Shown in pieces: positions 1 through 64,000 of a DNA stretch of 64,000 bases. Source of the DNA: Obrimoposthia wandeli. Taxonomy: Eukaryota. Made by a program: the position numbers and the translations under genes. How positions within the stretch are numbered: the stretch's first letter is position 1; each line of letters starts with the position of its first letter. The DNA is taken from positions 186,001 through 250,000 of the forward strand of contig CDROCS010001869.1 of NCBI GenBank assembly GCA_977020255.1. The letters are read 5' to 3'. The notes under the pieces are model-generated. The model was not told where the DNA came from. It saw nothing but the letters and a program-made list of their open reading frames with translations, and made no database searches.

Positions 1-3000
1 AAATTTTAATTTAAGAAGTTTTTAAATAAAATATTAAAGTACCAAACACATCTATAGTAATCAATCAATTACGCTATGTGAAAATTAAGGTCAAAGTTCA
101 ATCTTATCAGTAAAGGATTGTATTACGTAATAATACACACACTATTATATGTGAAAATTTAGTTCAAAGTTCACTCTTATCAGTTAAGGAATGTATTACG
201 CTATGTGAAAACAATTTTGTTAAAAAAAATTAAAAGGTCCTGATAAAATAAAAATACTTGTAATTTCAAAAATAATATTACTTTTTAATTCAAATTTGTG
301 CCAAATTAATTGTTAGTTTTTGTTAAAGTTGAATAAATTTTAATTTAACGAGTTTTTTTTTTTAAAATAAAATATTAAAGTTTTATTATTTAAAATAAAT
401 AATTAACAAAAAAAAGTAATATACTTAAAATACTTTACTAATATTTTTAAAAATTTATATTTAAATTTACGCAACTTTTTTAATTAATTTTAATAATGTA
501 AATAAAGAATTTGTTTAATAAAATTAAGAAGCATTATAAAAAAAAACCACAATTATGTGATCAAGAAAAGTTGTTTAACATATAAATGAATTATCATATT
601 ATATTAATAAGAATTTGTTAAAAATTTAAAATAATAAAAAAAATAATATTTTGTGAGGATTAGTATCCTTATTAACGTCATCAGTTACACTTTCAGCCAT
701 TCATACCATCAAATATAGTGTTGTTTTCTATTAATCTTGCTGTAACTTAGTCATTCTAACTTTTAACATAACTCAGTATCACTGCTTCTTACAGTTGCTT
801 ACTTGTTATTAATCTAACTGTAACTTAACATAACTTTTATTTATACAGAAACTCTATTTTAATTTACTTGTTGTCTAAATTACACTCCCATTCAATCATA
901 CTCTGACACTCTTATTTTTTAATTACTTACATTGTCACTCATTCACACTTGCAGTTTTACATTCACTTGCTAAGACTCTTACTTGTATTTGAATTCACTT
1001 GCATTCATACTTGCATTCATTTACATTCATTCTAAGTAGCATTCAAATTCATTAATATTTTTCTAATTTTCATTCATACCGTCAAACTTAGTGTTGTTTT
1101 CTATTAATATCGCTGTAACTTAGTCATTCTAACTTTTAACATAATTCAGTATCACTGCTTCTTATAGCTGCTTACTTGTTATTAATCTAACTGTCACTTA
1201 ATATAACTTTATTCATACGAAAACTCTATTTTAATTTACTTATAGTCTAAATTATACTCACATTCAATTATTCTCTCGACATTATTATTTTTTAAAATTA
1301 CATTCACTTGCTAAGACTCTTACTTGCATTTGCATTCATTTGCATTCATACTTGCATTCATTTACATTCATCCTAACTCTCATTTATTTAAACTAGCATT
1401 CAATTCATTAATATTTTTACTAATTTTCATTCATACTTATACTTGCCATTCCTACTTGCAATCGTTCTCTTTCTTACTTGTACTTGTAGCTACATTCATT
1501 CATACTTGCATTCATTTACATTCATTGTTAATTGTACTTGCTTTATTTGCATTTACACTTGTATTAATTCATACAATCGATAATTAATTAATTTTATTTG
1601 TTATCACAAGATATTTTTAATATTTTAGAAAGTCGAATAATAAATAGAAATACTAAGTTGATAATCGAATATGTACATAATTTTATTTATTTACATATAA
1701 AACAATATAATTAAAGATTTGGTATTCTAATTTATAAACAGAACTTTCAGTAACTTTGAATATCATGTGTTTGCAAATTAAGTTTCAATATTCGATACAA
1801 ATAGAATACATGTATAAAATTAAATTTTGCAGTTTTAAAAATAAAATGTTTTAAGAATATTTTCGAATATATAAAGTGGAAATTAGATAATATTAATACT
1901 CAAAATATATAAATATTTCTTTAGCCATGTTCTTTAAAAATAAAGAATTCAAATTTATCAGATTAAAAAAAAATCTATGAGGGAAGGTTATCAAAAAAAA
2001 TAAGGAATGTTATCAAATGAGATGAGGAATTTTTAATGATTTATGTGTATATGTGAATGAATTTTTGATCTTTGTATCATATGAAAATAACAATATGTGA
2101 AAATAAAAATAACATGTGAAAATTCACATTTAATTATTATAATTTCATCAGATTGTTACATCTCTTCATTGATTGATAGTATTAATTTAATAATTAGCTA
2201 GCTAGTAAATTATTTTAGATTATTCTTTTTTAAATTTGCTTTAATATTTAAAATAATAATATTTTCGACATGATTTAAGTTATAAATTACAAGTATAAAA
2301 GTGTGTAATTTAAAAATTAATAAATATTTAACATGTGTAACTAAGAGTGTAATAAATATGTTTTTGTTAAAATATAAATTAGTTAAAATACATCAATGGT
2401 GACAATTTATGACGTAAATTTAAATATTTATTTAAAAAGAAATATTATTAAAATATTTAAAGTATATTACATTTTTTTTGTTTAATATTTATTTTAAATA
2501 ATGTTATTTTAATATTTTGTTAAAAAAACCCGTTAAATTACAATTTATTTAACTTTAACAAAAACTAACAAATTAATTTGGCACAAATTTTTATTAAAAA
2601 ATATAATTATTTTTGAAATTACAAGTATTTTTATTTTATCAGGACCTTTTAATTTTATTTAACAAAATTGTTTTCACATAGCGTAATACATTCCTTAACT
2701 GATAAGAGAGAACTTTGACCAAAATTTTCACATAGTGTAATTGATTGATTACTATAGATGTGTTTGGTACTTTAATATTTTATTTAAAAACCTGTTAAAT
2801 TAAAATTTGTTTAACTTTAATAAAATCTAACAACTTATAATTGGCACAAATTTAAATAAAAAAAAATTATTAAAAAAAAAAAAATTACAAGTATTTTTAT
2901 TTTTCATCAAGATCTCTTTATTTTATAAAACAAAATTGTTTATTTACATTAATAAAATTAATAAAAAATTTGCGTAAATTTAAATATTTATTAAAAATAA

Positions 3001-3165
3001 ATAATGTTACTTTAATATTTTATTTTTAAAAATTCATTAAATTAAAATTTGTTTAACTTTAACAAAAAAACTAACAAAATTATGTGGTACAAATTTAAAT
3101 TTAAACATATTTTTATTTTTTGAAAATTACAAGTATTTTAATTTTTTTCATCAGGACCTTTTAAA
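1..3165. repeat. Long inverted repeat: arms ~1-530 and ~2390-3165
   Basis: e.g. 19-60 GTTTTTAAATAAAATATTAAAGTACCAAACACATCTATAGT is the reverse complement of ~2751-2791; 190-330 pairs with 2560-2710. The right arm contains ~250-bp tandem units. Confidence 0.85.
680..1580. repeat. CATT/CTTG-rich tandem array (Polinton internal repeat), with a ~370-bp duplication (715-1000 vs 1085-1330)
   Basis: Repeated CATTCATACTTGCATTCATTTACATTC motifs; reverse complement of the array at 58890-60200. Confidence 0.85.
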
Positions 3166-3267
3166 GTATGCATGACCTTAAGGGTAAGGTTGAACTCAAT
3201 TTTCATAGACAAATACAACCATGTAATAAAATTATCATGTTTGTTTCAAATCAAACCCTTTACTTGT

Positions 3268-3700
3268 GGACGACCATAACATTTTTACATGATTAAACTC
3301 ACAATATTTTGACAAACACAACCAGGTACTTAAAACTTTGAAATTCCAACTTTTCTTAACCCTTCATCTATGGTCCACCACACCTTTATGGATGAATTCG
3401 CCTTCTAAAAATGATTCCAATCATGTACTAAAACCTTGATATTTTAAACTTGATTTTGTTTTTAGCCCAACCCTTTCCTCTATGGACGACACAACCCTTA
3501 AGATGTGATAGACAACCATAGTTGACCTTAATTATACCTTCAAATCTTCAAGTCATAACTGAGCCCAACCCTTTCATATATGGACGACCACAACCCTTTA
3601 GATGTGTTGGTCAACTATAGATCGTCATGACCATACCTTCAAACCTTCAAGTTGAAACTGAGTCCGACCCTTTCATCTATGGACGACCACAACCCCTTAT
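3268..3700. repeat. Subterminal ~100-bp tandem units with TATGGACGACCACAACCC core (about 5 copies)
   Basis: Core seen at ~3268, 3369, 3481, 3580, 3678. Confidence 0.8.
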
Positions 3701-5091
3701 GGTGTGACACCCTCATGGCGAGGCAACATATACCCTTATGGTGTGACACCCTTTAACATTGTGTGCGCACACAGGGCGGTCAAGTGATCTAGACTCCATC
3801 CTTCTACATACTTACAAAGAATTTCAAATGAATGTATGTACTGATTGGGTGGAAAGTTTGATCGAGGAATAATATTATTAAGCCAAATGGGAGGAGAAAA
3901 TGATGGCATATTACTGATGATCTTTAAAAGAGTGTAATAAAGTTAAAACTAGTCGAAAATCTAAATAATATTCATTTAAAATATCTTTTTCATTTTAATA
4001 CGTGCTTAATAAAGAGTTTAATCAATGTCCTGCATTGTTTGTTGTTCAAATTTTATTCATAAATATATACAATTAAAAAAAAGAACAAAAAGCTGTATCA
4101 AATGAACCTAATACACTCAACAAAATTTAGTAAAGTAGTTACTGAAATTAACTAAATGACATTGAATCTCAGTGTTACAATTATTTTTCCAATTACGTTG
4201 AATATTAAAGACATTAATAAAATTAGTCCATCACACCAAAGTAAAATTGAATTGTTCCTCTGCAGTTGTATTTCAACCTCTTCGTAAAACTATTATAAGA
4301 GGATATTATATTTTCCATGTAAAATACTTTAATAATATTTAAAATAATTATAGAATTATGGTCACAAGCATCTACATACTAATATTAGTCTATAGTACAG
4401 AAATAAGTATAACCGATTTTTGTCACTTGAAAGATTAATCAGTTAGCCAACAAATAAATATGGTACTTTCTTAAGCACACAACCAAGTCAACACACACAG
4501 CTTCATGCTTTGATTCCTAAGCATACATACATACATAATCATGCATGCATACATACATACACGGTCTTGTGAATTAATTAGTATAGATTTTGAGTTAAAC
4601 CCTCGTTAAAAGTATAAATACAAGCTAAAATATTAGATAGCTTAATATTTTATGTTATTGTTGACTAATATTAAGATTTTACCAGACGTTTTACCCAAAT
4701 TTCGTGGTTGAGCCAATTAATAATCACATTAGTGTGCTAAATTTAGGCAAATATATGGATTTTCGTAATGGCAAATAAATTAATATTTGGAATAAATTTT
4801 CATTTGTCTTATGGAAAAATCTATTAACATGAGTTAGTTAAATATGTTCACGATTTGACTTTGGCTAATATTGATTGTCAAGATTCTATAATGGAAAGGA
4901 AAGTAATCGTTACAAAATTCGAAATGGGGATTATGATAGTTTTAATTTTCATCACAGTAATTGAACAGTAAATCCAAACTCATTTAGTTAATTTCCCCAA
5001 CCGATTAATTAAATGTTGATGAGTGCACTGATATTGACGTTAATATAAAGATTTATATAAACAATAACGTAAAAGACTCATTTATCTCCAG

Positions 5092-5490
5092 GAGAAATTG
5101 AAATAGACGAAGACGTTTCAAAGGAGAATATCGATATGTATGTGGAGAAGAATATCCAAAGCACGAGTCATAGGAACAGTTATACTACCCACCATCACAA
5201 TGAGCAGGAAATCAATGACTTTAAGAAGCTGAAACGGCTATCATACTTCGTTCTGGGTATGTTCCAGTTCTGGACATTCTTTCGCCTAAATATGCTGCTG
5301 GCCATGCGGACTCCTCTCTTTGCGGTTCTTCGGAGTTTGGGTCCCGTTATTGCAATCCTGATGGCGGCACTGTTATTCCTCTTCGAGACCAACCGCTCCC
5401 ATGAGTTCATGTACAGTGGCTCCAACACCTCCATGGTCTCAGGCAAATGGGCGTCGTTCATATTCTTCACATTTGTGTCCAATAAGTCAG
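5092..5490 (+). CDS. ABCA: ABCA exon (NBD1-TMD2 linker and TM7)
   Basis: CCAG|GA acceptor, CAG|GTTATA donor; [18 protein letters not shown]...[14 protein letters not shown]; phase 1-1. Confidence 0.85.
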
Positions 5491-44400: not shown

Positions 44401-47265
44401 ATGTTAAATTGGTTGTTTGCAATCCATAATCCTACATGAACCTATAATAATAATAATAATAATAATTGTAATACCTGTTGGAAATATAACTATAGTATAT
44501 TCCCTTAACTTTTCAACATATTGTATAGGTTTCTTTGATCGAAAGAGTAAGTGACTAACACTTCCCTTAACTTTACCTTTATAATTTATATTGCTTATTT
44601 TCATTTCATGTAATAATAGTGTTGATGATGTCACAGACTTATATAGTTTTGTATTATCCAATGATAATCAATAACCAATCAGATTCAAGTAGTCAACTAT
44701 AACTAACAAAATATTTAAGTTTACTGTCATTATTATTTTTCATGTTCAATTTACAAAAACAAATTTTGAAGAGCGACGATAGAAAGAAGAATGGAATTTT
44801 AAATAATCAGCGATTAAAACTCAAAAGCACAATCCATATAGATTCTGATGATACAGAATCAGAAGATATTTTTAAGTGAAAATTTCATCATGATGCCCGT
44901 AATCTATGGATTTTACTACAATGTTATGCTAACAAAATTCAAAATTGATTACGTAATATCAAGATTTCACAGTACGGTTATAAATCATCTTAATACTTTT
45001 TCAAAGGTATGAAATTGGATATAATGTTTTTTTAAATTTAGTGTTTTCATTATAGCTAATGAAAATTCATTCCCGGAATCTATGAATTCTATGAAGAAGA
45101 GATTCCCAAATGCAAAAATTGGACATTATTTATTCAAATACAAGTTCAAAGTTGATAAGCTCGGAAAAACCGAAGCCTATATCGAAAATTACAGAAGGAA
45201 ACGTGAAAGTTTAATAAATATTGACTGTCTTTATTATCTTTTACTATAAACAAAAGGATTTTTAAATATTCCTTGTCACCGGTGCTGCCCGGTCATGCAG
45301 GGCCTTTCTCTTAGGAGGCTCCGAAAGGGAGAATTTGGTAATTTTTTAAATCTATAAGTTTCAAATACACGTAAAACACTTTAAAACATATAAAAAATGC
45401 AAAATTTAAAATTTGTAACATCAAAGCTAAAATTCTTGTATAAACCGCGAAATTTAAAAATTCAGTCTCTAAATCGTGCATTCGGGAATTTGCAGTAAAA
45501 TGTCATTTTGGAATCATTTAGTGTGGTTTGAGTGATTTTTGTGTGTTTTTGAGGAATTTGTAGTAGAATAGAGTGTTGGAACGGGAATGATGGAATTAAG
45601 AGCACAGCGTACCACCCCGGAGGCCTTTGTTCCGAAATTCCCGTACCGACACTATGCATCAATTTCTTTTAAATATCAAAATCGAGTGGCATGAAATGTA
45701 GATTAGGCCGTAACAATGGATATTAAGTAAATGGATTTTGTTTTGAATACTTTCCAATCAGTCTTTAAAAATTGATTCAATGAAACAACTTTGATTGTTA
45801 TATTTATCACACTGTCGGTGTACTGATATTGTCATTTGTGAATAAAATAAGATAATAGATATTCAATGGGAAATGGCATAAATTAAATTAAAATATGTTT
45901 TGTTTAAATTGTAAGTTGCGGTTAAATTTTGATAATTTCTCTCGCTTCTTTTCTAGCGACTCAATGGTGAATTTTTTTCATAGAATTTTCAAGTAATTAT
46001 AAGGAATATATAATTCTATTCAATTTCTAAACTCGCCAGAAATTATTTTTCTACTTTATAATTATAGACACATCAATTTATTGATTGCACTTTTAATTTT
46101 CGTGACTCAGCTTTTTATTTTGAATGTTTTAGTTTCAATTAGAAATATTTCATCATCAGCAGGCTAAATTAACGAAAATTTTTGTTGTTATTTTTGAAAC
46201 AAATTCTTAATTATTCATTATAATCGTGTCATTGTACTTTACTTTCTTTTACATTAAAATAACATTTAAGTTTGTTCAAATATCTAAATTTAAGTATCAA
46301 ATAATATTGTACTTTTAAAAAGTTTCTATTATAATTTAAATTTGCAAATGTTCTGTTTTATAACTATGAAGTCCTTAGAGATAATGAATAACAACACAAA
46401 ATTAAAGTGATTTTAATATATTTCCCATTGATCCACTCATTTACAATATTTGTGCTGGGATTAACGTACTTTGAACCAATGAATGTGATGGGCCAATCAA
46501 TTGATGAACACTATTTAGCTACTATTTTTGTTACAAATTGTTTCGTTATTTAAGGCTATTCAACATAAGCACAGTTTAAGATTTGATGGATGGTATAAAT
46601 AAGTCAAATCATGTAATATGTCATGCGTAATTAAAAGAAAATGAATAGATAAAAACGGTAGGTACATTGCACATACATATCAAATTGATTTTTATTCTCT
46701 CATAGTTAGTTTGAATGCATATAATACAAAGAAATTAAATTTATTCATGCATTTTCGGATATAACTTCACATAAGTTATTTTGTCATTTTAGGGTTGGAA
46801 TTTACTGAATTTGCAATTTGAGTTGTGGAAGTTGAAAATCTCAAATTTCAAATAAAACTAAAATTCGTAGAAATAATAAGAACAATTATGCTAGAAAAGG
46901 AAATCCACTATGTACAAATTTGGTTGTATACATACATTATACAGGGAAAAAACTGGGAAATGTTCTGTAAAAGAAAACTTCACACAATTATTATTGTTCG
47001 TAAAATTTATCTTGGAATTTTATTGTTTTTTTATTTTAGAATCTAAATGTAATCTCACTCAGTTCTTTATGAATTAAATCATATTCCTTAAGTCCATACC
47101 CTGTCGTTACACTATGTTTACGTTTTAGCTAAAGAAAAGTTTCCAGTTGAAGACTACGCCGTCAGTCAACCAACTTTGGAGCAGGTATACTTCGATTTTG
47201 CAAAATTCCAGACCAAGGATGACCTCAAATATGACGTCGAAATCAACTGGAAATACAAGTCCTGA
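5092..47265 (+). CDS. ABCA: ABCA-subfamily ABC transporter, C-terminal half (16 exons; 5' half lies upstream of the window)
   Basis: All 16 exons have AG/GT boundaries and compatible phases. Spliced protein shows TM7-12, Walker [11 protein letters not shown]-loop CPQ, signature LSGGCKRR, Walker B/D-loop [32 protein letters not shown] and the ABCA C-terminal [24 protein letters not shown] at 47373. Confidence 0.95.
7151..7464 (-). pseudogene. Polinton basic core-type protein (QKGGF motif)
   Basis: [87 protein letters not shown], one nonsense codon and a frameshift. Resembles the small basic Polinton protein encoded downstream of the ATPase. Confidence 0.7.
7510..7745 (-). pseudogene. Second, more decayed QKGG-motif basic protein
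   Basis: Lys-rich frameshifted frame ending [10 protein letters not shown], between the ATPase and the clearer paralog. Confidence 0.35.
7712..8078 (-). pseudogene. Polinton packaging ATPase (FtsK/A32-like), C-terminal fragment
   Basis: [18 protein letters not shown] and [20 protein letters not shown]...[25 protein letters not shown] match Polinton ATPase motifs (H+NxSVIxxxQNLF; LFKNPRD; PYGYLxxD; RLRTxIF). Confidence 0.85.
8300..10070 (-). mobile_element. Degraded pogo/Tigger-like DNA transposon remnant
   Basis: TA-CAGTGCACTCTGCGTTAT terminus at 10070 next to a (TA)n run; weak [16 protein letters not shown]-terminus near 9700; left boundary uncertain. Confidence 0.35.
10578..10720 (+). CDS. 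ABCA: ABCA exon (extracellular domain 2)
   Basis: TTTTCAG|AT...TGG|GTAAGT; phase 1-0, open frame. Confidence 0.85.
12456..12752 (+). CDS. ABCA: ABCA exon (ECD2 and TM8, ends VVRDRM)
   Basis: TTCCAG|AAC...ATG|GTGGGC; 99 codons; VRDR matches ABCA V(K/R)ER. Confidence 0.9.
13183..13314 (+). CDS. ABCA: ABCA exon ([24 protein letters not shown]9)
   Basis: TTTAG|ACA...GAT|GTAAGT; 44 codons; matches the AKHLQxxxG...YW motif. Confidence 0.9.
15593..15742 (+). CDS. ABCA: ABCA exon (TM10 region)
   Basis: TTTCAG|AAT...ATG|GTAAGC; 50 hydrophobic codons, YCVSFAF resembles ABCA YxxSFxF. Confidence 0.85.
17091..17216 (+). CDS. ABCA: ABCA exon (TM11 region)
   Basis: TTTAG|GTT...TTT|GTGAGT; 42 codons, phase 0-0. 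Confidence 0.8.
17667..17845. mobile_element. MITE, Tc1/mariner-pogo type
   Basis: 23-bp TIRs CAGTAATTATTCACCT(A/G)TAAGGG with one mismatch, TA on both flanks, internal CACCTATAAGGG repeats. Confidence 0.9.
18632..18739 (+). CDS. ABCA: ABCA exon (loop before TM12)
   Basis: TTACAG|AGG...GTA|GTATGT; 36 codons, phase 0-0. Confidence 0.7.
20202..20358 (+). CDS. ABCA: ABCA exon (TM12 and linker)
   Basis: TTTAG|CAC...GAAG|GTACGA; phase 0-1, GC-rich open frame. Confidence 0.8.
20880..21260 (-). mobile_element. Chapaev3-like (CMC) transposase remnant
   Basis: LHVFVPI*...HDDCYFC and [15 protein letters not shown] match the FxVPMxWRE..HxxDCYFC / YPNxPSAIRPVPH motifs. Confidence 0.6.
22732..22808 (+). 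CDS. ABCA: ABCA exon (pre-NBD2 linker)
   Basis: TTCAG|AT...GAT|GTAAGC; phase 1-0, only one open frame. Confidence 0.75.
23937..24152 (+). CDS. ABCA: ABCA exon (NBD2 Walker A)
   Basis: [16 protein letters not shown]; TTAG|GTG...AAG|GTAGAC. Confidence 0.95.
25574..25759 (+). mobile_element. Mariner transposase N-terminal HTH remnant
   Basis: [47 protein letters not shown] matches the mariner HTH consensus. Confidence 0.85.
26200..26384 (+). CDS. ABCA: ABCA exon (NBD2 Q-loop)
   Basis: [20 protein letters not shown]; CCCAG|GTT...AC|GTGAGT. Confidence 0.95.
27072..27147 (+). CDS. ABCA: ABCA exon (ABC signature LSGGCKRR)
   Basis: TTCCAG|G...CGG|GTGAGA; phase 2-0. Confidence 0.95.
29770..30330 (-). 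mobile_element. Degraded DNA-transposon-like coding remnant, family unresolved
   Basis: GC-elevated frameshifted frames with a Cys/His-rich end ([19 protein letters not shown]), reminiscent of piggyBac-type C-terminal domains. Confidence 0.3.
30896..30990 (+). CDS. ABCA: ABCA exon (Walker B and D-loop)
   Basis: [31 protein letters not shown]; TGCAG|TTA...TG|GTAAGG. Confidence 0.95.
33645..33720 (+). mobile_element. Tigger/pogo-type TIR remnant
   Basis: TA-CAGTGAAACCTCGATTATCGGATACC; partner end not found. Confidence 0.5.
34190..34620 (-). mobile_element. CR1/L2-like LINE 3' fragment
   Basis: EFFSERI...GCFKNRLDQ resembles the CR1 ORF2 C-terminus FFSxRV...FKxRLD, followed by a GC-richer 3' UTR. 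Confidence 0.5.
35201..35320 (+). CDS. ABCA: ABCA exon (H-loop region, His replaced by Gln)
   Basis: [22 protein letters not shown]; TGCAG|G...AT|GTGAGT. Confidence 0.95.
35500..35945 (+). mobile_element. Tc1/mariner transposase C-terminal remnant
   Basis: [23 protein letters not shown]...[11 protein letters not shown] matches DFFLWGxLK...GxHFEHL. Confidence 0.8.
37797..38038 (+). CDS. ABCA: ABCA exon (regulatory R2 domain)
   Basis: [15 protein letters not shown]; TTTCAG|G...CAG|GTGAGC. Confidence 0.95.
39241..39620 (-). pseudogene. Polinton adenain-type cysteine protease with a 35-nt intron (39615-39581) whose donor reads TTAAGT
   Basis: Spliced [25 protein letters not shown]...[16 protein letters not shown]...IFDPL...[13 protein letters not shown] keeps catalytic H, D, Q and C; exon 2 is open. 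Confidence 0.9.
39617..40671 (-). pseudogene. Polinton major capsid protein, frameshifted
   Basis: [30 protein letters not shown] and GNLRLDIKF...[15 protein letters not shown] align with the intact capsid at 62773-63999; the TGA stop overlaps the protease ATG. Confidence 0.9.
40690..40910 (-). pseudogene. 3' part of a small gene upstream of the capsid (amphipathic/basic)
   Basis: [31 protein letters not shown] then a Lys/Arg-rich tail; identity rests mainly on position. Confidence 0.3.
40914..43260 (-). mobile_element. Ty3/Gypsy pol remnant (RT, RNase H, integrase), no LTRs seen
   Basis: [79 protein letters not shown]. Confidence 0.9.
43320..43603 (-). pseudogene. Unknown small ORF with one nonsense codon (probably Polinton accessory)
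   Basis: [57 protein letters not shown]...; no recognisable family. Confidence 0.35.
43623..43935 (-). pseudogene. RING-finger (IAP/Mdm2-like C3HC4) protein
   Basis: [40 protein letters not shown]; one in-frame stop just upstream of the RING; missed by the ORF track because there is no Met. Confidence 0.85.
44167..44604 (-). pseudogene. TATA-binding-protein-like gene with a 33-nt intron (44474-44442) and one nonsense codon
   Basis: Spliced: ...[19 protein letters not shown]...[13 protein letters not shown]...[15 protein letters not shown], matching the two TBP repeats (IFxSGKxVxTGAK; YEPELFPGL). Confidence 0.7.
44880..45170 (+). mobile_element. Possible MULE transposase remnant
   Basis: MMPVIYGF and [12 protein letters not shown] resemble MULE PxVYALL and AxKxxFPxAxIxGC. 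Confidence 0.35.
47129..47265 (+). CDS. ABCA: ABCA terminal exon with stop codon
   Basis: TTTTAG|CT; [25 protein letters not shown]...KS*. Confidence 0.95.
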
Positions 47266-49226: not shown

Positions 49227-51754
49227 TTAAGCATGGGATTTTAACGAGTTCTTTGGTCTTTCTTTTCGTTTCCGCTTACTTCTCCTAATCCAAGTGGGAT
49301 TCATCTCACTCGTCCATCTATTCCACACATGACTAATGAACTCTTGTATTCTACACCACCGATGCCTGAGTTTTCCGCTCCCTGTTGACGCTGTCTCATT
49401 CCCCAAACTTTCTTCTCTTCCACTCACCATGAAATATTTTGGTCTTAACCGTAATTCTTCATTGCTATCTGCTGACTGAAAAGTGATTGCTCGAGAGTTC
49501 ACAGCTCCTCAACTTCAACGGATACCGTCATCAGCTCTTCATCACTTAGGTCAGCATTCATCAACACCATCCCAATAGCTTTATTAGCGCTCCTGATCAA
49601 ACTTTCAAACACTCCCCCAAAATGTGGCGCGATTTGTGGGTTAAATATCCAACGAATCTCTTCTCGTTCCAATTGCTTTCTCATTCTGTAATCGCAATTC
49701 AAATTTCACTTGTTACGTTAGCTGTCCCTTGAAGGTTTGTGCCATTGTCGGAAATAATCAAATGCGGCCTATCCCGTCTTCCCATAAATCTCTTTAAAGC
49801 CCTTATAAACTCGTCCGACTCTAAATTTCAAGCCATCTCTAGAGGTACCGCCCGTGTTTGTAAGCATGTAAACAAACATAAATATCGTTGGTTTCGAACA
49901 CAATGTGGCAATAACCACTTAGTCTCATTTTCCTTTGATTTCGAAATCATCGTAAATAACCCTTGTCTATATGATCATCTATCACTCGGCTATATTCCAT
50001 CTTTAATTGAGGGTCACGTGCAAATTTCCGAATCAAACTCTCCATTCGACTTTTTATCATCTCTTTACTTTTGCGTAACTCTTCTTTCACCGGTTTCCAC
50101 GGTATCCTCACCTGATACTTGTCGCCGTCATACACAATCGTGTGTTTCGTTTTCTGGATCAGTCTTTCATATTCGATTGACATTATCGTTTCATTCATAC
50201 ATTCCTCAATAGCCCAAAACCTTTGCAGCATCTTGTTTAATTGTTCGTCTTGTGCCAGATACGTTCTTGCGAAATCTGTTGTATTTCCTCCACTACCATC
50301 TATCATTCCCATACACGTCCAACCCAGCGGTGTCAACCAAGCCACCGGATCTCCATCTCTTCCAGCAACTTCTCTAATCACTCGATGCGCTCTCATGCAA
50401 TCTGCATCTATCAAGACATCAATGTTTTGCAATTTCCGACCTCTTTTTTGGAATTGTATATTCCTGAGATGTGGCCATCTTCCTGCTATTTTATCCCACT
50501 TGTATACTGTCAAGTCGCCAGTTGCGCTATTTACGGTTAGAGCATCTAATATTAAATTTTCTTTACTATCCACACTTTTAACCTGCACTTTCATTGATGT
50601 AGCTCTTATCTCTTGCACCTTCCCTCCAACAACTTCTACTGGAACTATATATTCTGGTCTCTCTAATCTCAATGCCTTTGCTATTCAGTTGTTGGCATAA
50701 CTCGTTGTGCTAGCATCATCTAATAGTGCGTTTACCGACACTGTCTTTCTTCGATTTTTCAGAATGACAGGCACTGTTCGCAATGTTATCATTTGATCTG
50801 GCCTCTTTTTAATCTTACGCGTTACATATGTCTCCTGCATCTTTCCATTATCTTTCGAATCTCTGTGGACTAAATAATGGTGTTTTGTTCTGCAACCAGT
50901 TGCATTGCAAAGCTTCTTCATCTTACATTCGTTTGCGCGATGTCCTCTATTTAGACAATTGAAACATAATACATGCTGTCTCACTAAATGCCATCTAATT
51001 CAACGCTAAGCTCTTAAATAGCTCACATTGACTTAGATAATGTTTCTCCCCACACTTAAGACAACTAATTATCCGCTCCTGGGTTCCTCGCAATGTGTTA
51101 GTAAGATACGTAACTCTTCCTCTTTCTACTCCAGTCCTTCCGACTCCTTGTGATACATCAGCTGCCTTCTGCAAATAACCGGCCTCCTGTCGAGCCCATT
51201 TTGCTAACGTTTCCATATCTTCTTCTTCCTTACACGTATGAATGTGCCTTCCACAACTGATTTTAGATACATCCGGCATTAATTTCAACACTTTATGGAA
51301 CAACATTCCATTTTTTAATTCTTCTTCCTTCTTCATCTCTTTCAATTTGACTATTGTCGTTTCCACAAACTCTGCATACTTCTCTTACATAAAGTCACTG
51401 CTGCAACTGCAGCTGGATCTTCTGTGTAACCGCATCAAAAAGCTCCTTAAGCCGCCAATTTCCAAAGCGAATCGTCCTACGACCAAGGAGCCTGACAGTG
51501 AGATTGCCTCTCGTCGGGCCGTCCAAATCTGTCCAACAAAAAAAACTCACATAAACCACTTTCCACTATGACTATTTATACTCTTTTACAAACACACAAC
51601 CTCACACAATATGTCCATAAAAATGTCACATTCAACATATATTAACTAGTTAATGTGGGCTCTTAACTAGTCACCAACGTGCAACTCCACCCGCATAGGC
51701 GAACTACCAGCTACAATCAGGCAGTTGACAACCGGGCCACTTGACGTCAGAACA
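49227..51754 (-). mobile_element. BEL/Pao LTR retrotransposon, internally deleted and rearranged
   Basis: Gag knuckles CFNCLNRGHRANEC/CNATGCRTKHHYLVH, protease ALLDDASTTSY, LQRFWAIEE, integrase CLFTCLQTRAV, ISDNGTN, APHFGGVFESLIRS, HVWNRW; candidate 5' LTR start TGTT at 51754 with TATAAATA near 51575. Confidence 0.9.
51387..51531 (+). other. 145-bp inverted copy of the host exon at 54906-55050
   Basis: 6 substitutions in 145 nt by manual alignment. Confidence 0.95.
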
Positions 51755-54583: not shown

Positions 54584-55071
54584 TCAGGACGACAGCGGTT
54601 GCTGCTTCTTTTTCATTCTCTTCTTCTTGTTGTCCTTCTTGGTCTTCTTGATAGGCTCAGAGGATCCTGTTTCTGCCACCGCCGCCTTCGATGTCGTCTT
54701 CCTAGCGAAGAAGGGTACTGGATTTCGGTGGCTAGTGGAGGGTTTATCTTGGTGATCACTGGGCCTCCCCAGCACTGGAATGGAGAAGGAGATCACATCC
54801 TCGGGGAGAGCAGTGAAAGTGGCCACACCATTGCCAGATGAAGGCTGAGGTCTGAGTAGCGCGGCAGATGAATGACTGCTGATACTGAACCGGGCTGTGC
54901 TCGTCCAGATTTGGACAGCCCGACGAGAGGCACTCTCACTGTCAGGCTCCTTGGCCGGAGGACGATTCGCTTTGGAAATTGGCGGCTTAAGGAGCTTTTT
55001 GATGCGGTTACGCAGAAGATCCAGCTGCAGTTGCAGCAGTGACTTTGTGTGATCACTGATGTCGCTGGCGT
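54584..55071 (-). CDS. Terminal exon of an unidentified host gene (basic, low-complexity tail); 5' end in the gap
   Basis: GC-rich open frame of ~160 codons ending ...KKKRMKKKQQPLSS*; composition like the ABCA exons. Confidence 0.7.
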
Positions 55072-55685
55072 NNNNNNNNNNNNNNNNNNNNNNNNNNNNN
55101 NNNNNNNNNNNNNNNNNNNNNNNNNNNNNNNNNNNNNNNNNNNNNNNNNNNNNNNNNNNNNNNNNNNNNNNNNNNNNNNNNNNNNNNNNNNNNNNNNNNN
55201 NNNNNNNNNNNNNNNNNNNNNNNNNNNNNNNNNNNNNNNNNNNNNNNNNNNNNNNNNNNNNNNNNNNNNNNNNNNNNNNNNNNNNNNNNNNNNNNNNNNN
55301 NNNNNNNNNNNNNNNNNNNNNNNNNNNNNNNNNNNNNNNNNNNNNNNNNNNNNNNNNNNNNNNNNNNNNNNNNNNNNNNNNNNNNNNNNNNNNNNNNNNN
55401 NNNNNNNNNNNNNNNNNNNNNNNNNNNNNNNNNNNNNNNNNNNNNNNNNNNNNNNNNNNNNNNNNNNNNNNNNNNNNNNNNNNNNNNNNNNNNNNNNNNN
55501 NNNNNNNNNNNNNNNNNNNNNNNNNNNNNNNNNNNNNNNNNNNNNNNNNNNNNNNNNNNNNNNNNNNNNNNNNNNNNNNNNNNNNNNNNNNNNNNNNNNN
55601 NNNNNNNNNNNNNNNNNNNNNNNNNNNNNNNNNNNNNNNNNNNNNNNNNNNNNNNNNNNNNNNNNNNNNNNNNNNNNNNNNNNNN
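55072..55685. other. Assembly gap (614 N)
   Basis: Run of n. Confidence 1.
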
Positions 55686-56769: not shown

Positions 56770-57786
56770 ATAATTTGCTTTTTTTCGATAATTTAGTAAG
56801 GTCCTTCGTAACGGTCTTCATCTTTGTTTTGAACTTCTTTCTTAACCCAGACATATTCACCTATCTGAAATGTGATCCGAGTCTCTTCTTCCTTTTCGTG
56901 GCTCCCCTCCTTTAATCTGTCTCTTATTTTAAGTCGATCTGTATCATTATCATTGAACCATTTTAATCTATAAATTTTTTTTCCAAAAACTATATCTGCC
57001 GGGCTGACTCCTATTGTCTTTTGTTTCGTTGTGTTAACCGTAAATTCCACCTCCGGTAATATCTCTGCCCAACTTGTTAAGTTCCTTTCTTTCATACTCT
57101 TATCGTCCTCGACTGTCTTTCTACCATTCCGTTTGTATTGTGGTGATACAGGTTTGAGAAAATTAAATTGATACCTTTTTCTTTCATCGGATCTCTTACT
57201 TTCTTTGCCTCAAAACATTTTCCGCAGTCAACGTAAATCTCCCTTTGTGCCAAATTTAAGAATCCAACTTTTTAGTATCGTTTCTATAACTGTATCTTCG
57301 TCTTGTCGTTTGATAGCTGTTAGCACTATATATTTGCTATGGTGGTCTATCATTGCCATAATATATTTTTATATTTTTTACTGTCTCTTTCTGCGGACCA
57401 CAAATGTCTATGTATATTTTTTCAAACAATTTTTCGACCAACTTGTGGTCATTTTTATCGTTTTTTGTTGTTCTGGTTGTCATTGTTTTTGTCAGCTGGC
57501 ATTCTGAAATTATCACTTTTACTGTCTTCTTACATTCTTCCATTTCAAATTTATCTTTTATGTATTCAGATACCTTTTCTGCTCCTGCATGACATAGTAG
57601 TCTGTGTGTTTGCGTGATAAATTATCTTCTCTTTTCTTTCATGACCCATTCTTTTCTTCCTTCCTTGGTCTGACATCGGGGTGTCACCGCCAGTATTTTG
57701 GTTTTTATCTTTTCGGTTTTAGCTTCTTTGTGTGTTGTTAAATATTTGGTACAAGTTCTTCTTGACATAATGTCGGCATTACTATG
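56770..57786 (-). mobile_element. Ty3/Gypsy integrase remnant, truncated by the Polinton terminus
   Basis: FEKIYIDICGP, MIDHHSKYIVL, RQDEDTV..WILKFG, NGMVERQ, GVSPADIVFG, RYEGPY. Confidence 0.9.
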
Positions 57787-57793
57787 AGTAGGT

Positions 57794-58000
57794 AGAAGGA
57801 TGGAGTCTAGACCACTTGACCCCACCCCCTAAAGGGTGTCACACCATAAGGATGTCTTGCCACACCATAAGGGTATATGTTGCCTCACCTATGGTGAGGC
57901 AACATATACCCTTATGGTGTGGCAAGACACCATTATGGTGTGACACCCTTTAGGGGGAGGGGGAGGGAGGGGGGTCAAGTGATCTAGTCTCCACCCTTCT
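57794..58000. repeat. Terminal palindrome with ~100-bp arms and a 3-nt loop (57890-57892)
   Basis: Innermost 37 bp perfectly complementary, a further 25 bp perfect after a short mismatch, outer 25-30 bp with 3 mismatches after a G-rich bulge. Confidence 0.97.
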
Positions 58001-58296
58001 TTGATATACCACTATGGTCGTCCATAATTCAAAAGGTCAAGTGATCTAGTCTCCACCCTTCTTTGATATACCACTATGGTCGTCCATAATTCAAAGGGTC
58101 AAGTGATCTAGTCTCCACCCTTCTATTGGCTAACCACTAAAGGGTTGTGGTCGTCCATAATTCAAAGGGTCAAGTGGTCTAGTCTCCACCCTTATTTGAT
58201 ATACCACTATGATCGTCCATAATTCAAAAGGTCAAGTGATCTAGTCTCCACCCTTCTTTGATATACCACTATGGTCGTCCATAAATCAAAGGGTCA
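57973..58296 (+). repeat. 62-bp tandem array, 5 units
   Basis: GGTCAAGTGATCTAGTCTCCACCCTTCTTTGATATACCACTATGGTCGTCCATAATTCAAAA; unit starts spaced 62, 62, 71, 62, 62. Confidence 0.97.
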
Positions 58297-58384
58297 AGGT
58301 CAGTTTTGACTTGAAACTTTGAAGGTATAATTAAGGTCATGTGAAAGTGCACACTTAAAAGTTAAGGAATGTATGACGTAATCA

Positions 58385-58630
58385 TACACACACTATTCTA
58401 TGTGAAAATCAAGGCTAAAGTTCACTCTTATCAGTTAAGAAATGTGGTTTTTAACACACACACACTATTCTATGTGAAAATCAAGGCTAAAGTTCACTCT
58501 TATCAGTTAAGGAATGTGGTTTTTAACACACACACACTATTCTATGTGAAAATTTAGACTAAAGTTCACTCTTATCAGTTAAGGAATGTATTACGTAATC
58601 ATACACACACTATTCTATGTGAAAATTTAG
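58385..58630 (+). repeat. 72-bp tandem array, ~3.3 units
   Basis: CACACTATTCTATGTGAAAAT...AAAGTTCACTCTTATCAGTTAAGGAATGT; spacing 72, 72, 73. Confidence 0.95.
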
Positions 58631-58889
58631 ATCAAAATTTTTTTTCCTAGGCTTATACATTTATAGAATTATGATAAAATTTCTTTAAATAACTTCAATT
58701 ATATATTAAAATAAAAAATAAAATAAGAAAGAAGTCAGAGAATAATACAAAATTAAACACATTTATTATGTAATTTCATAATATAATCTTCAAACTTAAG
58801 TGAATAACATTTACAAAGTAAGAAAGTTCATTCTTTATACATTCTTTTCGTTTCAACGACTAAGTTACAACGGAATTAATAGAAAAAGG

Positions 58890-60200
58890 AAAAAAAAAAC
58901 AACAACACTAAGTTTAACGCTATGAATGAAAATTAGTAAAAATATTAATTTATTTGAATATTTGAATGAGAGTTTGAATAAATGAGAGTTAGAATGAATG
59001 TAAATGAATAAAATTATGCATGCAAGTATGAATGTAATTTACAAGTAAGAGTCTTAGCAAGTGAATGTAATTTTAAAATAAGAGTGTCGATAGTTTGATT
59101 GAATACAAGTATAATTTAGACTATAAGTAAATTAAAATAGAGTTTTCGTTGAATAAATTATAGTTAGATTGAATGCAAATGAATACAAGTATGAAAACAA
59201 GTATGAATGCTAGTATGAATGTCAATACAAGTAAGTGTCTTAACAAGTGAATGTAATTTAAAAATAAGAGTGTCGATAGTTTGATTGAATACAAGTGTAA
59301 TTTAGACTATAAGTAAATTAAAATAGAGTTTTCGTTGAATAAATTATAGTTAGATTGAATACAAGTATGAATGCAAGTGAATGCTAGTATGAATGTCAAT
59401 ACAAGTAAGTGTCTTAACAAGTGAATGTAATTTAAAAAATAAGAGTGTCGATAGTTTGATTTAATGCAAGTGTAATTTATACTATAAGTAAATTAAAATA
59501 GAGTTTTCGTTGAATAAATTATAGTTAGATTGAATGCAAAGAATGCAAGTATGAAAACAAGTATGAATGCTAGTATGAATGTCAATACAAGTAATTGTCT
59601 TAACAAGTGAATGTAATTTAAAAAAATAAGAGTATCGATAGTTTGATTTAATGCAAGTGTAATTTAGTCTATAAGTAAATTAAAATAGAGTTTTCGTTGA
59701 ATAAATTATAGTTAGATTGAATGTAAATGAATACAAGTATGAATGCAAGTGAATGCAAATACTAGTAAGTCTTAGCAAGTGAATGTTATTTTAAAAAAAA
59801 ATAATAATAAGATATCGAGAGTTTGATTGAATGCGAGTGTAATTTAGACAATAAATAAATTAAAATAGATTTTTCATCATGTTGAGTTACAGTTAGACTA
59901 ATAACAAGTAAGCAACTATAGGAAGCAGTGATATTGAAGTATGTTAAAAATTAGAACGACTAAGTTATGGCAAGATTAATAGAAAACAACACCAAATTTG
60001 ACAGTATGAATGAAAATTAGTAAAATATTAATGTATTTGAATGTAATTGAAAGATAGTTTGAATAAATTACAGATAGATTGAATGTAAATGAATGCAAGT
60101 ATGATTGAATGCAGGGTCAAGTACAAGTAAGAAAGAATACGCAATATGCAAGTACGAATGTCAATTATGAATGAAAATTAGTAAATATATTAATGAATTT
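58890..60200 (+). repeat. GAATGCAAGT-rich array with ~180-bp higher-order units (about 4 units, 59060-59830)
   Basis: AAGTGAATGTAATTTAAAATAAGAGTGTCGATAGTTTGATT recurs about every 175-185 bp. Confidence 0.92.
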
Positions 60201-61169
60201 GAATAATTAAAATGTCTTATCTCGTTTGATAAAATTCCTTAATTGAAATATTTTAAAATAATTAGTTAAATTTAAATTCTTTATTTTTAAATAACTTGAT
60301 TATACAATTATATTCGTAAATATAATTGAAATTATCATTATTCGTTTCTCTTTATAACTATTCGAAACTGTTTTTATATATACAAATTTTGTAAATTAGT
60401 TCAACAAACAATTTTTTTAATTACTTGATATTTTTGCCATTGTATTATTAATATAATATGAATATTCAATTTATTTCTTCAAAAATTCATTTTATATGTT
60501 AAATAATATTTCTTTACCACATTATTGTGGTTTTTATCAAGTGATTTTAACCTTAAACTATAAAAATATTTTAATTATAAAGTTAGTATCTGTACCGCGT
60601 CCACTGCATATAACATAAATTTCAAATATAAAGTACTATTAAGTTTATTATTTCAAATAGTAAATGTTTTTTCGAGTTATTTAATTTTGTTTACTAGACA
60701 TTCGAAAATTGACTTGTAAACATAATATTTTTTTTTGTTTGTTGCATATTTTCAGTTTAATATGTTGTAAGTTATTTGAACTTGTGTACTTGTACAAAAT
60801 TTATAGATATTTCAATAATTAAAAGCGATATAAAAGTTAATTATCAAATAATAAATAAAAAATAGTTAAATTAAATCTAATTTATGATATTACAATGCTA
60901 AATTCTTCTTTAAAACCAATGTTTAACATGAAATACTTAAAATCAATGGTTTTTTTTTTTTAAAAGTAACTTTATTTAAAACGTATAGGTATATGATTGA
61001 TATAATACAATACTAAACTAATGTAAATTTCAGTTATGAGTTGTTCAACTATGAATATTTTTAACTTATTTCTTGATTTTTACAACATTTCGAATAGTTT
61101 ACTTAATAATCATAATATTAATGATTTGTACATTTATCACTTACTGAATACGATTGGTTATATTATAAT

Positions 61170-62131
61170 TCAATAGTTTCCTCAAATGGGATGTAATTAC
61201 TGAGCATAGAGAGTGTGTCAGTAAATATACCCCTTTTTTAAATGAATTGCAGTATCATGGAATAGATTTTACTGTTAAATTAACTGCGATATCAAGATTT
61301 GAACATCTTAATAACTTGAGTATTAATGTATTCAAATATAATACTGATATCCCAGTTAATGTAACAGATGAAGAAATTTTTAAAAATCCTTTTGTAGATT
61401 TAATTTATAGGAGCAAAAATGAGGGGACTCAGGTCAACTTAATTTTGCTCGAACATAATAAAAAATTCCATTATGCTGCAATTCCCAATGCAGATGACTT
61501 GGTAGCAGTGTTATTAGGAAAACAGAGTATTTGTCTCGATCAACCGAGTTATATAGGTCAAATGGTTTTAGACATTTCTAAACTCAGAATGTATGAGCTT
61601 CAATACATAGAATTGGAGAAATACCGACAAGAATTTAATTGTGAGATCAAAATCGCGGCTGGAGACACTGGCTCTTTCTTTTTAGAATGTAGGAATGTTA
61701 GTTTAAATAATCAATTATTACCAGCAATGTTTAGGGACAACTTACTAGATACCCATAAATATCCCGCAAACCATCTTCTACACTCTATGAGTTTAAAGGA
61801 CATTATCGGGAAATTTAAGGATGAAAGCGAGGGACAGGTTTCGTATGATGATTGTATTTTCCTACGCCCTAAATGCTACAGTTTATATGCATCTAATAAT
61901 ACATGTTCAATGAGAGCAAAGGGTGTGGGAAGAAACAATCTTACACATGAGGCCTACCGGAAAGTTTATGATACTGGGTGTATTGAAAGCGTTGAGCAAA
62001 CTAGATTTATTTCAAGAGCCCATCAACTGTATTCCCATAAATCAACCAAAATCGCTTTGAGTAGTAATGACGACAAGCGCTTTTGGGTAGAAAAGAACGC
62101 TAGCCTGGCTTATGGACACTTCAGAATTTAA
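61170..62131 (+). pseudogene. polB: Protein-primed family B DNA polymerase, 5'-truncated and internally deleted
   Basis: VSKY..LQYHGIDFTVKL..ISRFEHLNNLSINVF..VNLILL..HY (N-terminal region) is fused to LVAV..DQPSYIGQMVLDISKLRMY, GDTGS, GKFKDE, LRPKCYS, RAKGV, LSSNDDKR, LAYGHF (C-terminal region). Confidence 0.92.
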
Positions 62132-62772: not shown

Positions 62773-63999
62773 CTATAATATGACAGTTCTGTTTTTATTG
62801 ATTTGTATTTCCGAATCAAATACTCCGTAAATAAGCACCGTAGTAGGATTTGTTAAAGCTGCATTGAACTTAATTTCTAGTCGTAAATTTCCATCCTTTG
62901 GTAGTTGGCATTGGTTTATATCAAAGTCTGGTGTCAAAACAAATGTGAAGAACGGGCAGCTGTTTTTAAAGTCAGTGAAATAAATACCATTGTTTATATT
63001 TTTATCTAGTTGACCCAAATTTCGAATAATAGATTGGGTATAAGCCAAAGCATAAGCGTTACCTTCGAAATCTGTTTTATATGTTTCACGATAATCAGTA
63101 TTTCTTGAAAGTGTCACTGAACCAACATTAAGATTGTCAAATTGAGTTGCATCTGTCGTATAATTTCCTTGAAACTTTGCAGTTTTTTGAAAAGAAATTA
63201 AAATGAATTTCGGTAATCTTACATCACCAAAAATTTGATCCTTATTAAAAGCTTGTGTACCCGTACCTAAAGAATAAGATATAAGTTTAGTTTCTCTAAT
63301 AGGATAACAAGCATTGTTTTTTTCCATTCCTATATTATGTGCCATTAAAACTGATTGCTCGGTTTTAACTCTTCGAACATACAATTTTGCATCCAAAATA
63401 TCAAGTCTAGGTTTTAGAATGTCCGTGCTTATCAAAGAAAAATTCCATTTATTACGTTTCAAACGAAGATGTACATTAACACCGGGAATTAAATATTTCG
63501 GTTGTTCAAAGAAATTCAATCTCAAAGACCCACACATTTCGTAAGCTTTAGAACCTGCAATCCATTCTTTGCGAGTTGCATCAGTTTTATCATAACCAAT
63601 GGTTGCCAAATTAGTATTTTGAGTATCAGTACTATAATTCAAAAGACTTTCAATCAAAGCTTTATGAGCATAGGAAGAAGTTTTACCTTCAATTTTGACA
63701 TTATTAAGAGTAACAATGGCATCATTAAATAAAGAATTAAATAGGTAATTTACAGGTGTTACATCGGCATTTTCATCTAAATTAGTACCATCCCGATTTA
63801 ATACTTTTATTTGAACATAAAGCAAAGTATCATTCAAATCTAAATACTCGCTATTGGAACCATTAATATTAAATTCTAAATCGGTTAAAGTGGTTCCTGA
63901 AACTGAGTTAACAAGGAATATTTCTTCAAAGGAAGCATTATCTACAACTACTTGTGGAAGCGGTTTATCAAAAATACATAATTCAGTTTTGGCGCAACT
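62773..63999 (-). CDS. Polinton/adintovirus major capsid protein (double jelly-roll), open frame, 5' end just beyond the window
   Basis: Frame is open from 63999 (SCAKTELCIFDKPLPQ...EYLDLNDT), through [14 protein letters not shown] and GNLRLEIKF, to the TAG at 62773; 408 codons plus stop in the window. Confidence 0.95.
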   Translation of the reverse strand, partial: SCAKTELCIFDKPLPQVVVDNASFEEIFLVNSVSGTTLTDLEFNINGSNSEYLDLNDTLLYVQIKVLNRDGTNLDENADVTPVNYLFNSLFNDAIVTLNNVKIEGKTSSYAHKALIESLLNYSTDTQNTNLATIGYDKTDATRKEWIAGSKAYEMCGSLRLNFFEQPKYLIPGVNVHLRLKRNKWNFSLISTDILKPRLDILDAKLYVRRVKTEQSVLMAHNIGMEKNNACYPIRETKLISYSLGTGTQAFNKDQIFGDVRLPKFILISFQKTAKFQGNYTTDATQFDNLNVGSVTLSRNTDYRETYKTDFEGNAYALAYTQSIIRNLGQLDKNINNGIYFTDFKNSCPFFTFVLTPDFDINQCQLPKDGNLRLEIKFNAALTNPTTVLIYGVFDSEIQINKNRTVIL

Positions 64000-64000
64000 C

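Follow-up and report, generated by a model that had tools for sequence, protein, structure and literature searches.

A long hairpin at the end of a Polinton/Maverick element, probably left by template switching during replication

Introduction

Why should a Polinton end in a long hairpin? The question is raised by position 57787 of a 64,000-nt stretch of genomic DNA (the window), where a Polinton/Maverick element begins with some 200 nt that fold back on themselves. Replication of Polintons by protein priming is captured in the racket model, as restated in the available text of PMC4196379; how the elements restart replication after leaving the chromosome, when the terminal protein has necessarily been removed, is described as unresolved in the portion seen of PMC11161782. 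AAV2, as described in the accessible part of PMC11575299, primes from a terminal hairpin, its Rep protein nicks a resolution site, and flip and flop ends occur. An initial annotation of the locus offered two answers: the family uses hairpin self-priming or a nicking step, or the palindrome is a fossil of fold-back during replication. The reading that we prefer, and to which we give a probability of roughly two in three, lies close to the latter: the hairpin is a by-product of replication, the product of a template switch, carried by a subset of copies of an ordinary protein-primed Polinton family.

Results

A broken Polinton inserted in a degraded retrotransposon

The element at 57787 is a non-autonomous Polinton/Maverick copy. 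The junction and the genes that follow are these:

56800..57786 (reverse strand): degraded Ty3/gypsy-like pol (RNase H end, zinc-binding and integrase-like stretches), the target of the insertion
57781..57786 (forward): the six bases left of the element, a candidate target-site duplication
57787..57793 (forward): element terminus AGTAGG(T), unpaired in the hairpin
61175..62131 (forward): remnant of the protein-primed polymerase (pPolB), in which a piece of the vOTU region is joined directly to the C-terminal 210 residues
62396..62750 (reverse): remnant of an adenain-like maturation protease, in two frames
62773..64000 (reverse): capsid gene, reaching the end of the window at 64000

The broken frames of the pol region, which we take to be of gypsy type from its motifs, reach the junction and are cut off at 57786. 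To the right, about 2.5 kb of repeats lead to the polymerase remnant, then the protease remnant and the capsid gene; the opposite end of the element is beyond the window. The polymerase remnant shares 57% identity over its last 211 residues with a 1304-aa relative, of whose protein about 620 residues (~477-1095) have no counterpart here: the gene is internally deleted, and no terminal-protein domain is detectable upstream of it. The protease was recognized by tblastn and by weak Peptidase_C5 matches in relatives. The capsid protein, with 280 homologs, scores 0.97-0.98 in the Atlas comparison to double-jelly-roll clusters of arthropods, nematodes and echinoderms, 15-22% of whose members carry PF21738. 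There was no Pfam or PDB sequence match to the capsid, and Pfam named none of the four window proteins tested.

The terminus carries one mismatch to the Maverick end motif, 5'-(AGT)2 (PMC8097293, in the part available). Its position was examined further with contigs from four public runs (X1-X4) of one sample, possibly the source of the assembly, aligned to 57400-58040 at 80% likeness. Contigs with loose ends just before 57787 and unlike flanks (agreement ~0.4) number 41, 142, 98 and 32 in the four runs. One contig of low, single-locus-like depth matches the flank junction itself (57625-57809) with no other letters and one gap. The remnants of capsid, protease and pPolB, the AGTAGG end and the many unlike flanks that join at 57787 bear out the Polinton identity and the terminus first proposed for this locus.

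Polinton-like fragments lie outside both copies in the window: an ATPase (58%) at 7775-8073, a protease (47%) at 39253-39585 and a TATA-binding-protein (TBP)-like fragment (36%) at 44176-44598, all on the reverse strand and all compared with the genes of relatives. The window also holds a small MITE-like element at ~17664-17850, with inverted ends of ~26 nt and internal CACCTATAAG-type repeats, and a 145-nt inverted pair of 96% identity (51387-51531 and 54906-55050) adjoining a 614-base assembly gap (N run 55072-55685). Coding sequence at 41001-43300 and 49900-51400 is strongly skewed, broken and retrotransposon-like; Pfam named neither of the two ORFs tested there.

Anatomy of the hairpin

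The stretch 57787-58000 folds as one hairpin with a predicted energy of -101 kcal/mol, against -31.7 +/- 4.0 for 200 shuffled sequences (z = -17.5), none of which equalled it. The hairpin proper spans 57794-58000 (~207 nt), and 90 of the 96 bases of the outer arm are paired. Its parts are as follows:

57794..57889 (forward): outer arm; a 28-nt terminal block and a short C tract, followed by two complete short repeats with CACACCATAA and part of a third
57890..57892 (forward): loop TAT, in the sense of the repeat unit of the inner arm and inverted relative to the outer arm
57893..58000 (reverse): inner arm; repeats the outer arm in inverted form, with a G tract that is longer and with no complement to the first 7 nt

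At the core is a perfect stem of 37 bp (57853-57889 with 57893-57929) around the TAT. The second-longest perfect stem anywhere in the window is 12 bp, and the longest across 40 block-shuffled windows is 13 bp. From base to apex the stem consists of the 28-nt block with three mismatches, the unequal C/G tract, 25 perfect pairs, two mismatches and the 37 perfect pairs. The arms are thus unequal, 96 nt outside and 108 nt inside, and differ by six substitutions and one 12-nt gap in the C/G tract; in this copy, none of the six is compensated. Three of them separate the outer and inner copies of the terminal block; on the strand with the 3' end, two of these three form G-T wobbles. Because pairing begins at 57794, positions 57787-57793 are free, and the predicted fold leaves the final 7 nt of the bottom strand without partners. 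The initial annotation had taken the first ~214 nt as self-complementary, with arms of ~100 bp and 37 perfect pairs around the TAT; hairpin and core hold, the outermost seven bases fall outside the stem, and the arms are not of one length.

Each arm contains TTATGGTGTG twice, at 57912 and 57933 on the forward strand and at 57840 and 57861 on the reverse, just as had been described. If these are to be called iterons, the term would be only a label for direct repeats that happen to be present in the arms. The short repeats have structure of their own: they contain the internal dyad GGTGT-C-ACACC, and each CCATA motif is enclosed by a short stem. Twelve Rfam matches, to generic microRNA and small-RNA hairpin models, all fell under the gathering score and were rejected.

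The window contains a second copy of the family, here copy B:

2413..3812 (reverse): end of copy B, non-coding, with the same terminal block, short repeats arranged head-to-tail, 99-bp repeats and no hairpin

This end does not fold (z = +0.27; 118 of 200 shuffles were as good), which upholds the caution voiced at the outset that the copy ending at 3812 keeps only the outer arm. Its terminus, AGTATG, has two mismatches to (AGT)2, and its short repeats follow one another head-to-tail at a spacing of 39 bp. Copy B looks like a non-coding derivative of the family. There is no ORF of 120 aa in 1-3812, where about 2 kb lie between the inner parts of a pair of long inverted repeats (1-471 against 2413-2808, 89-93% identical); the other end of the copy lies to the left of the window.

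Comparison with copy B gives the loop a direction. Read from the terminus, the apex is CCTCACC-TAT-GGTGAGG; read from inside, it is CCTCACC-ATA-GG, and the unit of copy B is CCTCGCC-ATG-AGG. The reading from inside matches the unit of copy B, and therefore the TAT loop belongs to the inner arm.

The array that follows the hairpin

Three sets of repeats occupy the region between hairpin and genes:

57972..58298 (forward): array of five units of 62/71 bp (62-bp period, 5.1 copies), each unit an inverted terminal block plus part of the 99-bp subterminal repeat
58329..58660 (forward): 72-bp repeats, common to the long inverted repeats of the second element (~74-200, 2682-2735)
58855..60204 (forward): subterminal repeats of ~186 bp, common to 698-1524 of the second element

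In each array unit the first half is an inverted copy of the terminal 28-nt block, the sequence that also makes up the inner arm's distal end. The other half corresponds to the subterminal 99-bp repeat seen in copy B. It had been proposed that the sequence of the outer arm seeds the 62-bp array. The terminal block is indeed inside the units, in the form of the inverted copy from the inner arm, and it is joined there to a second half of different origin. Altogether this copy contains six terminal blocks, five of them inverted. Of the four further array units, three agree exactly with the inner block; the terminal block of copy B differs by one change from the outer block and by two from the inner block. 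The array is entered and left through GGGTCAAG, and microhomologies occur at both presumed switch points as well. The inverted stretch stops 6-7 nt short of the terminus, at a place where array unit 3 and the 99-bp repeat share a CTA motif.

Is the hairpin shared by other copies?

Over the terminal block, summed contig depth exceeds that in the flank next to it by a factor of 1300-5400, a figure that is not a copy number; the family is therefore large. Many of its ends are built like that of copy B. At the apex (57888-57889), the contigs with loose ends that continue in tandem number 20, 30, 37 and 17 in the four runs. Joints that step back from 57921 to 57888, by one 39-bp head-to-tail unit, occur in nine contigs of X2 and also in X1, X3 and X4. 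At the C/G-tract spacer of the present copy, depth is 2-16% of that over the terminal block. The family as a whole does not have the hairpin: many sister ends are without it.

It is probably common to other loci nonetheless, and not unique to this copy. Among the 32 contigs listed of some 46,000, three cross the apex (57831-57915, 57841-57921 and 57843-57911), requiring 10, 9 and 4 edits as against 30, 24 and 22 for the best stretch in copy B. These contigs, from X1 and X4, carry differences of their own and have only 19-29 letters on the inner side, short of the 31-letter bridging rule. None of the listed pieces spans the whole hairpin.

Inverted joints with other apexes were also seen. One contig, in X2 only, passes from 57851 to 57933 with seven letters between, and most alternative-apex joints occur in X2 alone; a joint from 57897 to 57981, in one contig each of X1, X2 and X3, resembles the hairpin minus most of its inner arm. 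A joint from 57889 to 57937 was considered as a shorter hairpin and was not counted, for a head-to-tail end can align to the inner arm through the dyad of the repeat. Similarly, A>C at 57891 (50-62% of summed depth) was rejected as a loop variant, being probably contributed by head-to-tail units. The variant rows listed contain no T>A at 57890 or 57892; contigs this short leave flip and flop unreadable, as the 37-bp perfect arms make both orientations look alike.

Relatives and their polymerase

A search of metagenomes returned 55 loci, and five partial contigs with 53-58% capsid identity were scanned for ORFs. These relatives are ~57% identical in protein, and the ends of their elements lie outside the captured contigs: no terminus was recognized in the 19 of 55 loci examined (each at least 3400 nt), and the terminal hairpin region found no match among the 55 beyond stretches of 18-20 nt or one AT-rich stretch of 73 nt further in. 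Viral contigs gave no stretch with the terminal-block pattern and, in capsid searches, no relative.

What the relatives do supply is the gene set. They encode an rve integrase, an A32-like ATPase, a protease and pPolB, with integrase and ATPase both present in L001, L003, L004 and L008. No HUH/Rep family was found in 50 of the 59 ORFs (at least 110 aa) scanned in the five partial contigs. The SF3 helicase family PF00910 matches all four ATPase ORFs weakly, three of them above the cut-off; Pox_A32 comes first each time, and the Atlas groups these proteins with A32.

The N-terminus of the L001 polymerase was modelled from 28 sequences (pLDDT 83). A VIA structure search with the model picked out little-finger domains of the Y family (Z 8.2-8.4; 93-102 residues at rmsd 2.4-4.1) together with OTU domains, for which Z reaches 6.2; the Z values of both folds are middling. 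Serines followed by glycine stand in the expected loop, before the last strand. Foldseek against the PDB gave no match at E <= 0.001, whereas the wide VIA search did match. A pair of little-finger-like and OTU domains in a Polinton polymerase has been equated with terminal protein plus vOTU (PMC11161782, in the portion seen). With order and both folds matching in the model, the L001 polymerase appears to have retained this layout, and on this basis the clade seems to have kept protein priming.

All three long pPolB frames of relatives contain an insert matching Endonuclease_7 (PF02945), at E values of 2.5e-5 to 2.4e-4 and with one of the three above the curated cut-off. The frames are L001:9125-12568, L004:10212-14123 and L012:2818-6489, and PF02945 was found in 8 of 26 homologs as well. 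The endonuclease VII fold is known from junction resolvases.

Several other features of these contigs deserve record. A TATA-binding-protein-like ORF (PF00352, E 4e-12 to 2e-18) lies upstream of the ATPase at L004:2393-2866, L001:2160-2618 and L003:382-726, and ORFs for a ubiquitin-conjugating enzyme, a dual-specificity phosphatase and a RING protein stand beside the core genes at L004:225-722, L008:919-1260 and L003:1665-2168. Non-coding, AT-rich imperfect hairpins that are not tied to a terminus occur at L004:794-957 (two adjacent, 90 and 74 nt) and L033:35-100 (66 nt). At L015:1-72 and 5867-5939, inverted repeats of ~72 nt (81%) occupy the contig ends; ATPase, integrase and capsid lie between them, with no polymerase ORF.

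Discussion

How the hairpin may have formed

We propose the following sequence of events. A polymerase copying inward from the terminus would leave its template after ~100 nt, in a repeat unit that is self-complementary, anneal by 2-4 bases to the opposite (displaced) strand and copy back toward the end; it would then return to its template inside a 99-bp repeat, at the short shared CTA motif. The polymerase would most simply be the strand-displacing pPolB of the element, and a host polymerase would leave the same sequence. Later slippage at the shared GGGTCAAG could amplify this joint to give the 62/71-bp array, so that hairpin and array alike would be explained by two switches followed by slippage. 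Further switches might preserve the perfect 37-bp core as the stem base drifts: because the inner block is identical to three of four array units and the outer block differs at three sites, the perfect core and drifted base are as repeated local correction would leave them. As the outermost bases would remain untouched, the ends would still be primable by terminal protein and open to integration, and the hairpin could then be copied passively to some other loci.

Published counterparts, within the text available of the sources, are these: inversion of the spacer is a reported mark of intermolecular template switching at quasi-palindromes (PMC8604942); for the pPolB of phi29, a switch onto the displaced strand, which is the alternative template in strand-displacement synthesis, has been proposed in vitro (PMC4176320); and subgenomic phi29 DNA in vivo has been linked to template switching (PMC4974454, citing Murthy 1998). 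At the present locus the idea that the palindrome is a fossil of fold-back gains from the inverted loop, the microhomologies at both switches, the several apexes and the tandem sister copies. Copy B is unfolded, the tandem continuation at the apex is what sister ends display, and inverted joints at different apexes are expected of a recurrent accident. Several observations pull the other way. Two of the three terminal-block mismatches are G-T wobbles on one strand, the one with the 3' end. The apex is probably common to several loci, and a maintained element would also give shared, long-lived palindromes; furthermore, the 37-bp perfect core has survived, and long palindromes tend to be deleted. 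The loop may also have been inverted at a later time, when the arms recombined, the centre turned over or the hairpin was transferred.

Other explanations

That a sub-lineage uses the hairpin as a self-priming origin, with an endonuclease VII/HNH-type domain in pPolB in place of an HUH Rep to nick or resolve it, would fit a long and stable hairpin at the end of the element, an apex that is probably common to several loci, and two mismatches that become G-T wobbles on the strand bearing the 3' end; all three long pPolB frames of relatives have the Endonuclease_7 match, and there is a precedent in virophages as well as Polinton-like viruses (PLVs) of protists (bioRxiv 10.64898/2026.07.28.741278, in the part accessible). 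Yet the fold leaves seven 3' nucleotides unpaired, and their removal would sacrifice the end from which many insertions start; many ends show no hairpin; and the modelled folds suggest that terminal protein and vOTU are kept in a relative. The palindromes of the preprint, moreover, occur in all complete copies of a subtype and mostly with non-pPolB genes, and HNH-type inserts are reported from other Polinton polymerases too, in a paper whose available text has neither 'hairpin' nor 'palindrom' (10.1101/2023.08.22.554363). We consider this origin improbable. Applied to the family as a whole, as the initial annotation had it, self-priming or nicking runs against the many ends without a hairpin, the unpaired terminal 7 nt, the lack of HUH/Rep in 50 of 59 ORFs of relatives and the retained terminal-protein and vOTU layout. 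A fuller form of the proposal, just as doubtful, is that an animal pPolB Polinton sub-lineage with a maintained hairpin of ~100 bp replicates by hairpin priming, or in this way rescues ends that lack terminal protein after excision, the endonuclease VII-like domain of pPolB resolving the junction. Were it true, that domain would gain its first function, and protein-primed and hairpin-primed replicons would be bridged.

An accident could also have been put to use. Defective copies may now be favoured in the manner of defective-interfering genomes, the extra terminal blocks and short repeats serving as putative binding or re-initiation sites that compete for helper polymerase, integrase and packaging proteins. 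The polymerase of this copy is deleted, its terminal block is present six times (five inverted), and array-type sequence is abundant in all four runs, both in depth bins and as loose ends at 57985 and 58016. Against this, copy B, likewise non-coding, lacks both the hairpin and this array, contig depth is not copy number, and binding or competition is putative; we regard such an advantage as unlikely. An assembly or library fold-back artefact of a single sample would fit the fact that no listed contig spans the whole hairpin and that the three contigs across the apex fall below the 31-letter rule, as well as the restriction of most alternative-apex joints to X2 and the derivation of all four runs from one sample, possibly the assembly's source. 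A fold-back chimera, however, would be an exact copy, whereas six substitutions and a 12-nt gap separate the arms; the inner block agrees with the array rather than with the outer arm, the contigs across the apex in X1 and X4 carry their own differences, and a contig of single-locus depth supports the flank junction at 57625-57809. An artefact is accordingly very improbable. Template switching in a subset of copies stays our preferred reading.

Comparison with known systems

Among the nearest systems are the Polinton/Maverick and adintovirus-like elements, which combine pPolB, rve integrase, A32-like ATPase, protease and double-jelly-roll capsid (PMC8097293 and PMC11161782, as far as available). 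The present copy shares with them its capsid, its protease and pPolB remnants, an (AGT)2-like end and, probably, long, repeat-rich inverted ends, and its relatives have the full gene set and the terminal-protein/vOTU polymerase of the known group; the best viral fold match is a protein of a Drosophila-associated adintovirus. It differs in its deleted polymerase and in the inverted duplication of its first ~100 nt. The main text of the vertebrate Polinton survey, in the part available, contains neither 'hairpin' nor 'palindrom' (PMC8097293), and the accessible portion of PMC11296320 has nothing on Polinton hairpins. Our literature search found no report of a terminal hairpin in an animal pPolB Polinton, with the qualification that the supplements of the preprint on Halocafeteria seosinensis may list pPolB elements with palindromes. 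What is new here is a long terminal hairpin in a polymerase-type Polinton of a probably animal genome; base composition and the relatives suggest an invertebrate host.

That preprint (10.64898/2026.07.28.741278, cited from the text available) describes palindromes adjoining the target-site duplications; every complete copy in five subtypes (four of virophages, one of PLVs) has them, mostly alongside non-pPolB genes. Two explanations are put forward there: hairpin priming, for which parvoviruses and poxviruses serve as the analogy, or an accident. The idea of hairpin priming put forward for the present locus is therefore already in print for related elements. In both cases a palindrome lies inside the terminal repeat by the host junction. 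There it measures 52 nt in the subtype drawn and is found in every complete copy of the five subtypes; here it is ~207 nt, imperfect, set 7 nt inside the end and present at some ends only, and the element and its relatives carry pPolB, in contrast to the mostly non-pPolB replication genes of the protist elements. A genome so rich in ends, of which some fold and others do not, amounts to a natural experiment on hairpin priming.

The inverted terminal repeat of AAV2 (PMC11575299, in part) is likewise a terminal palindrome of similar size with short direct repeats in its stem. It differs in having what the present end does not: a paired 3' end, a T-shape and a place at every end. No Rep was detected in the 50 ORFs of relatives scanned, and the element, for its part, is of the double-jelly-roll/integrase/pPolB type. 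By the features tested, this end is no parvoviral origin. HUH genes among small relatives are reported for Mriyavirus-like groups (10.64898/2026.06.19.733378, as far as accessible).

A further likeness is to the products of template switching (PMC8604942, PMC4176320 and PMC4974454, within the portions seen), with which the hairpin shares two proposed switches at microhomology, perfected arms, an inverted loop and the likely involvement of a strand-displacing, protein-primed polymerase. It departs from them in the length of the inverted stretch (~100 nt), in being fixed in a chromosomal copy and in having seeded a tandem array. On this likelier reading the locus would be a legible record of polymerase template switching at the end of a Polinton, one in which the birth of subterminal repeat arrays can be followed.
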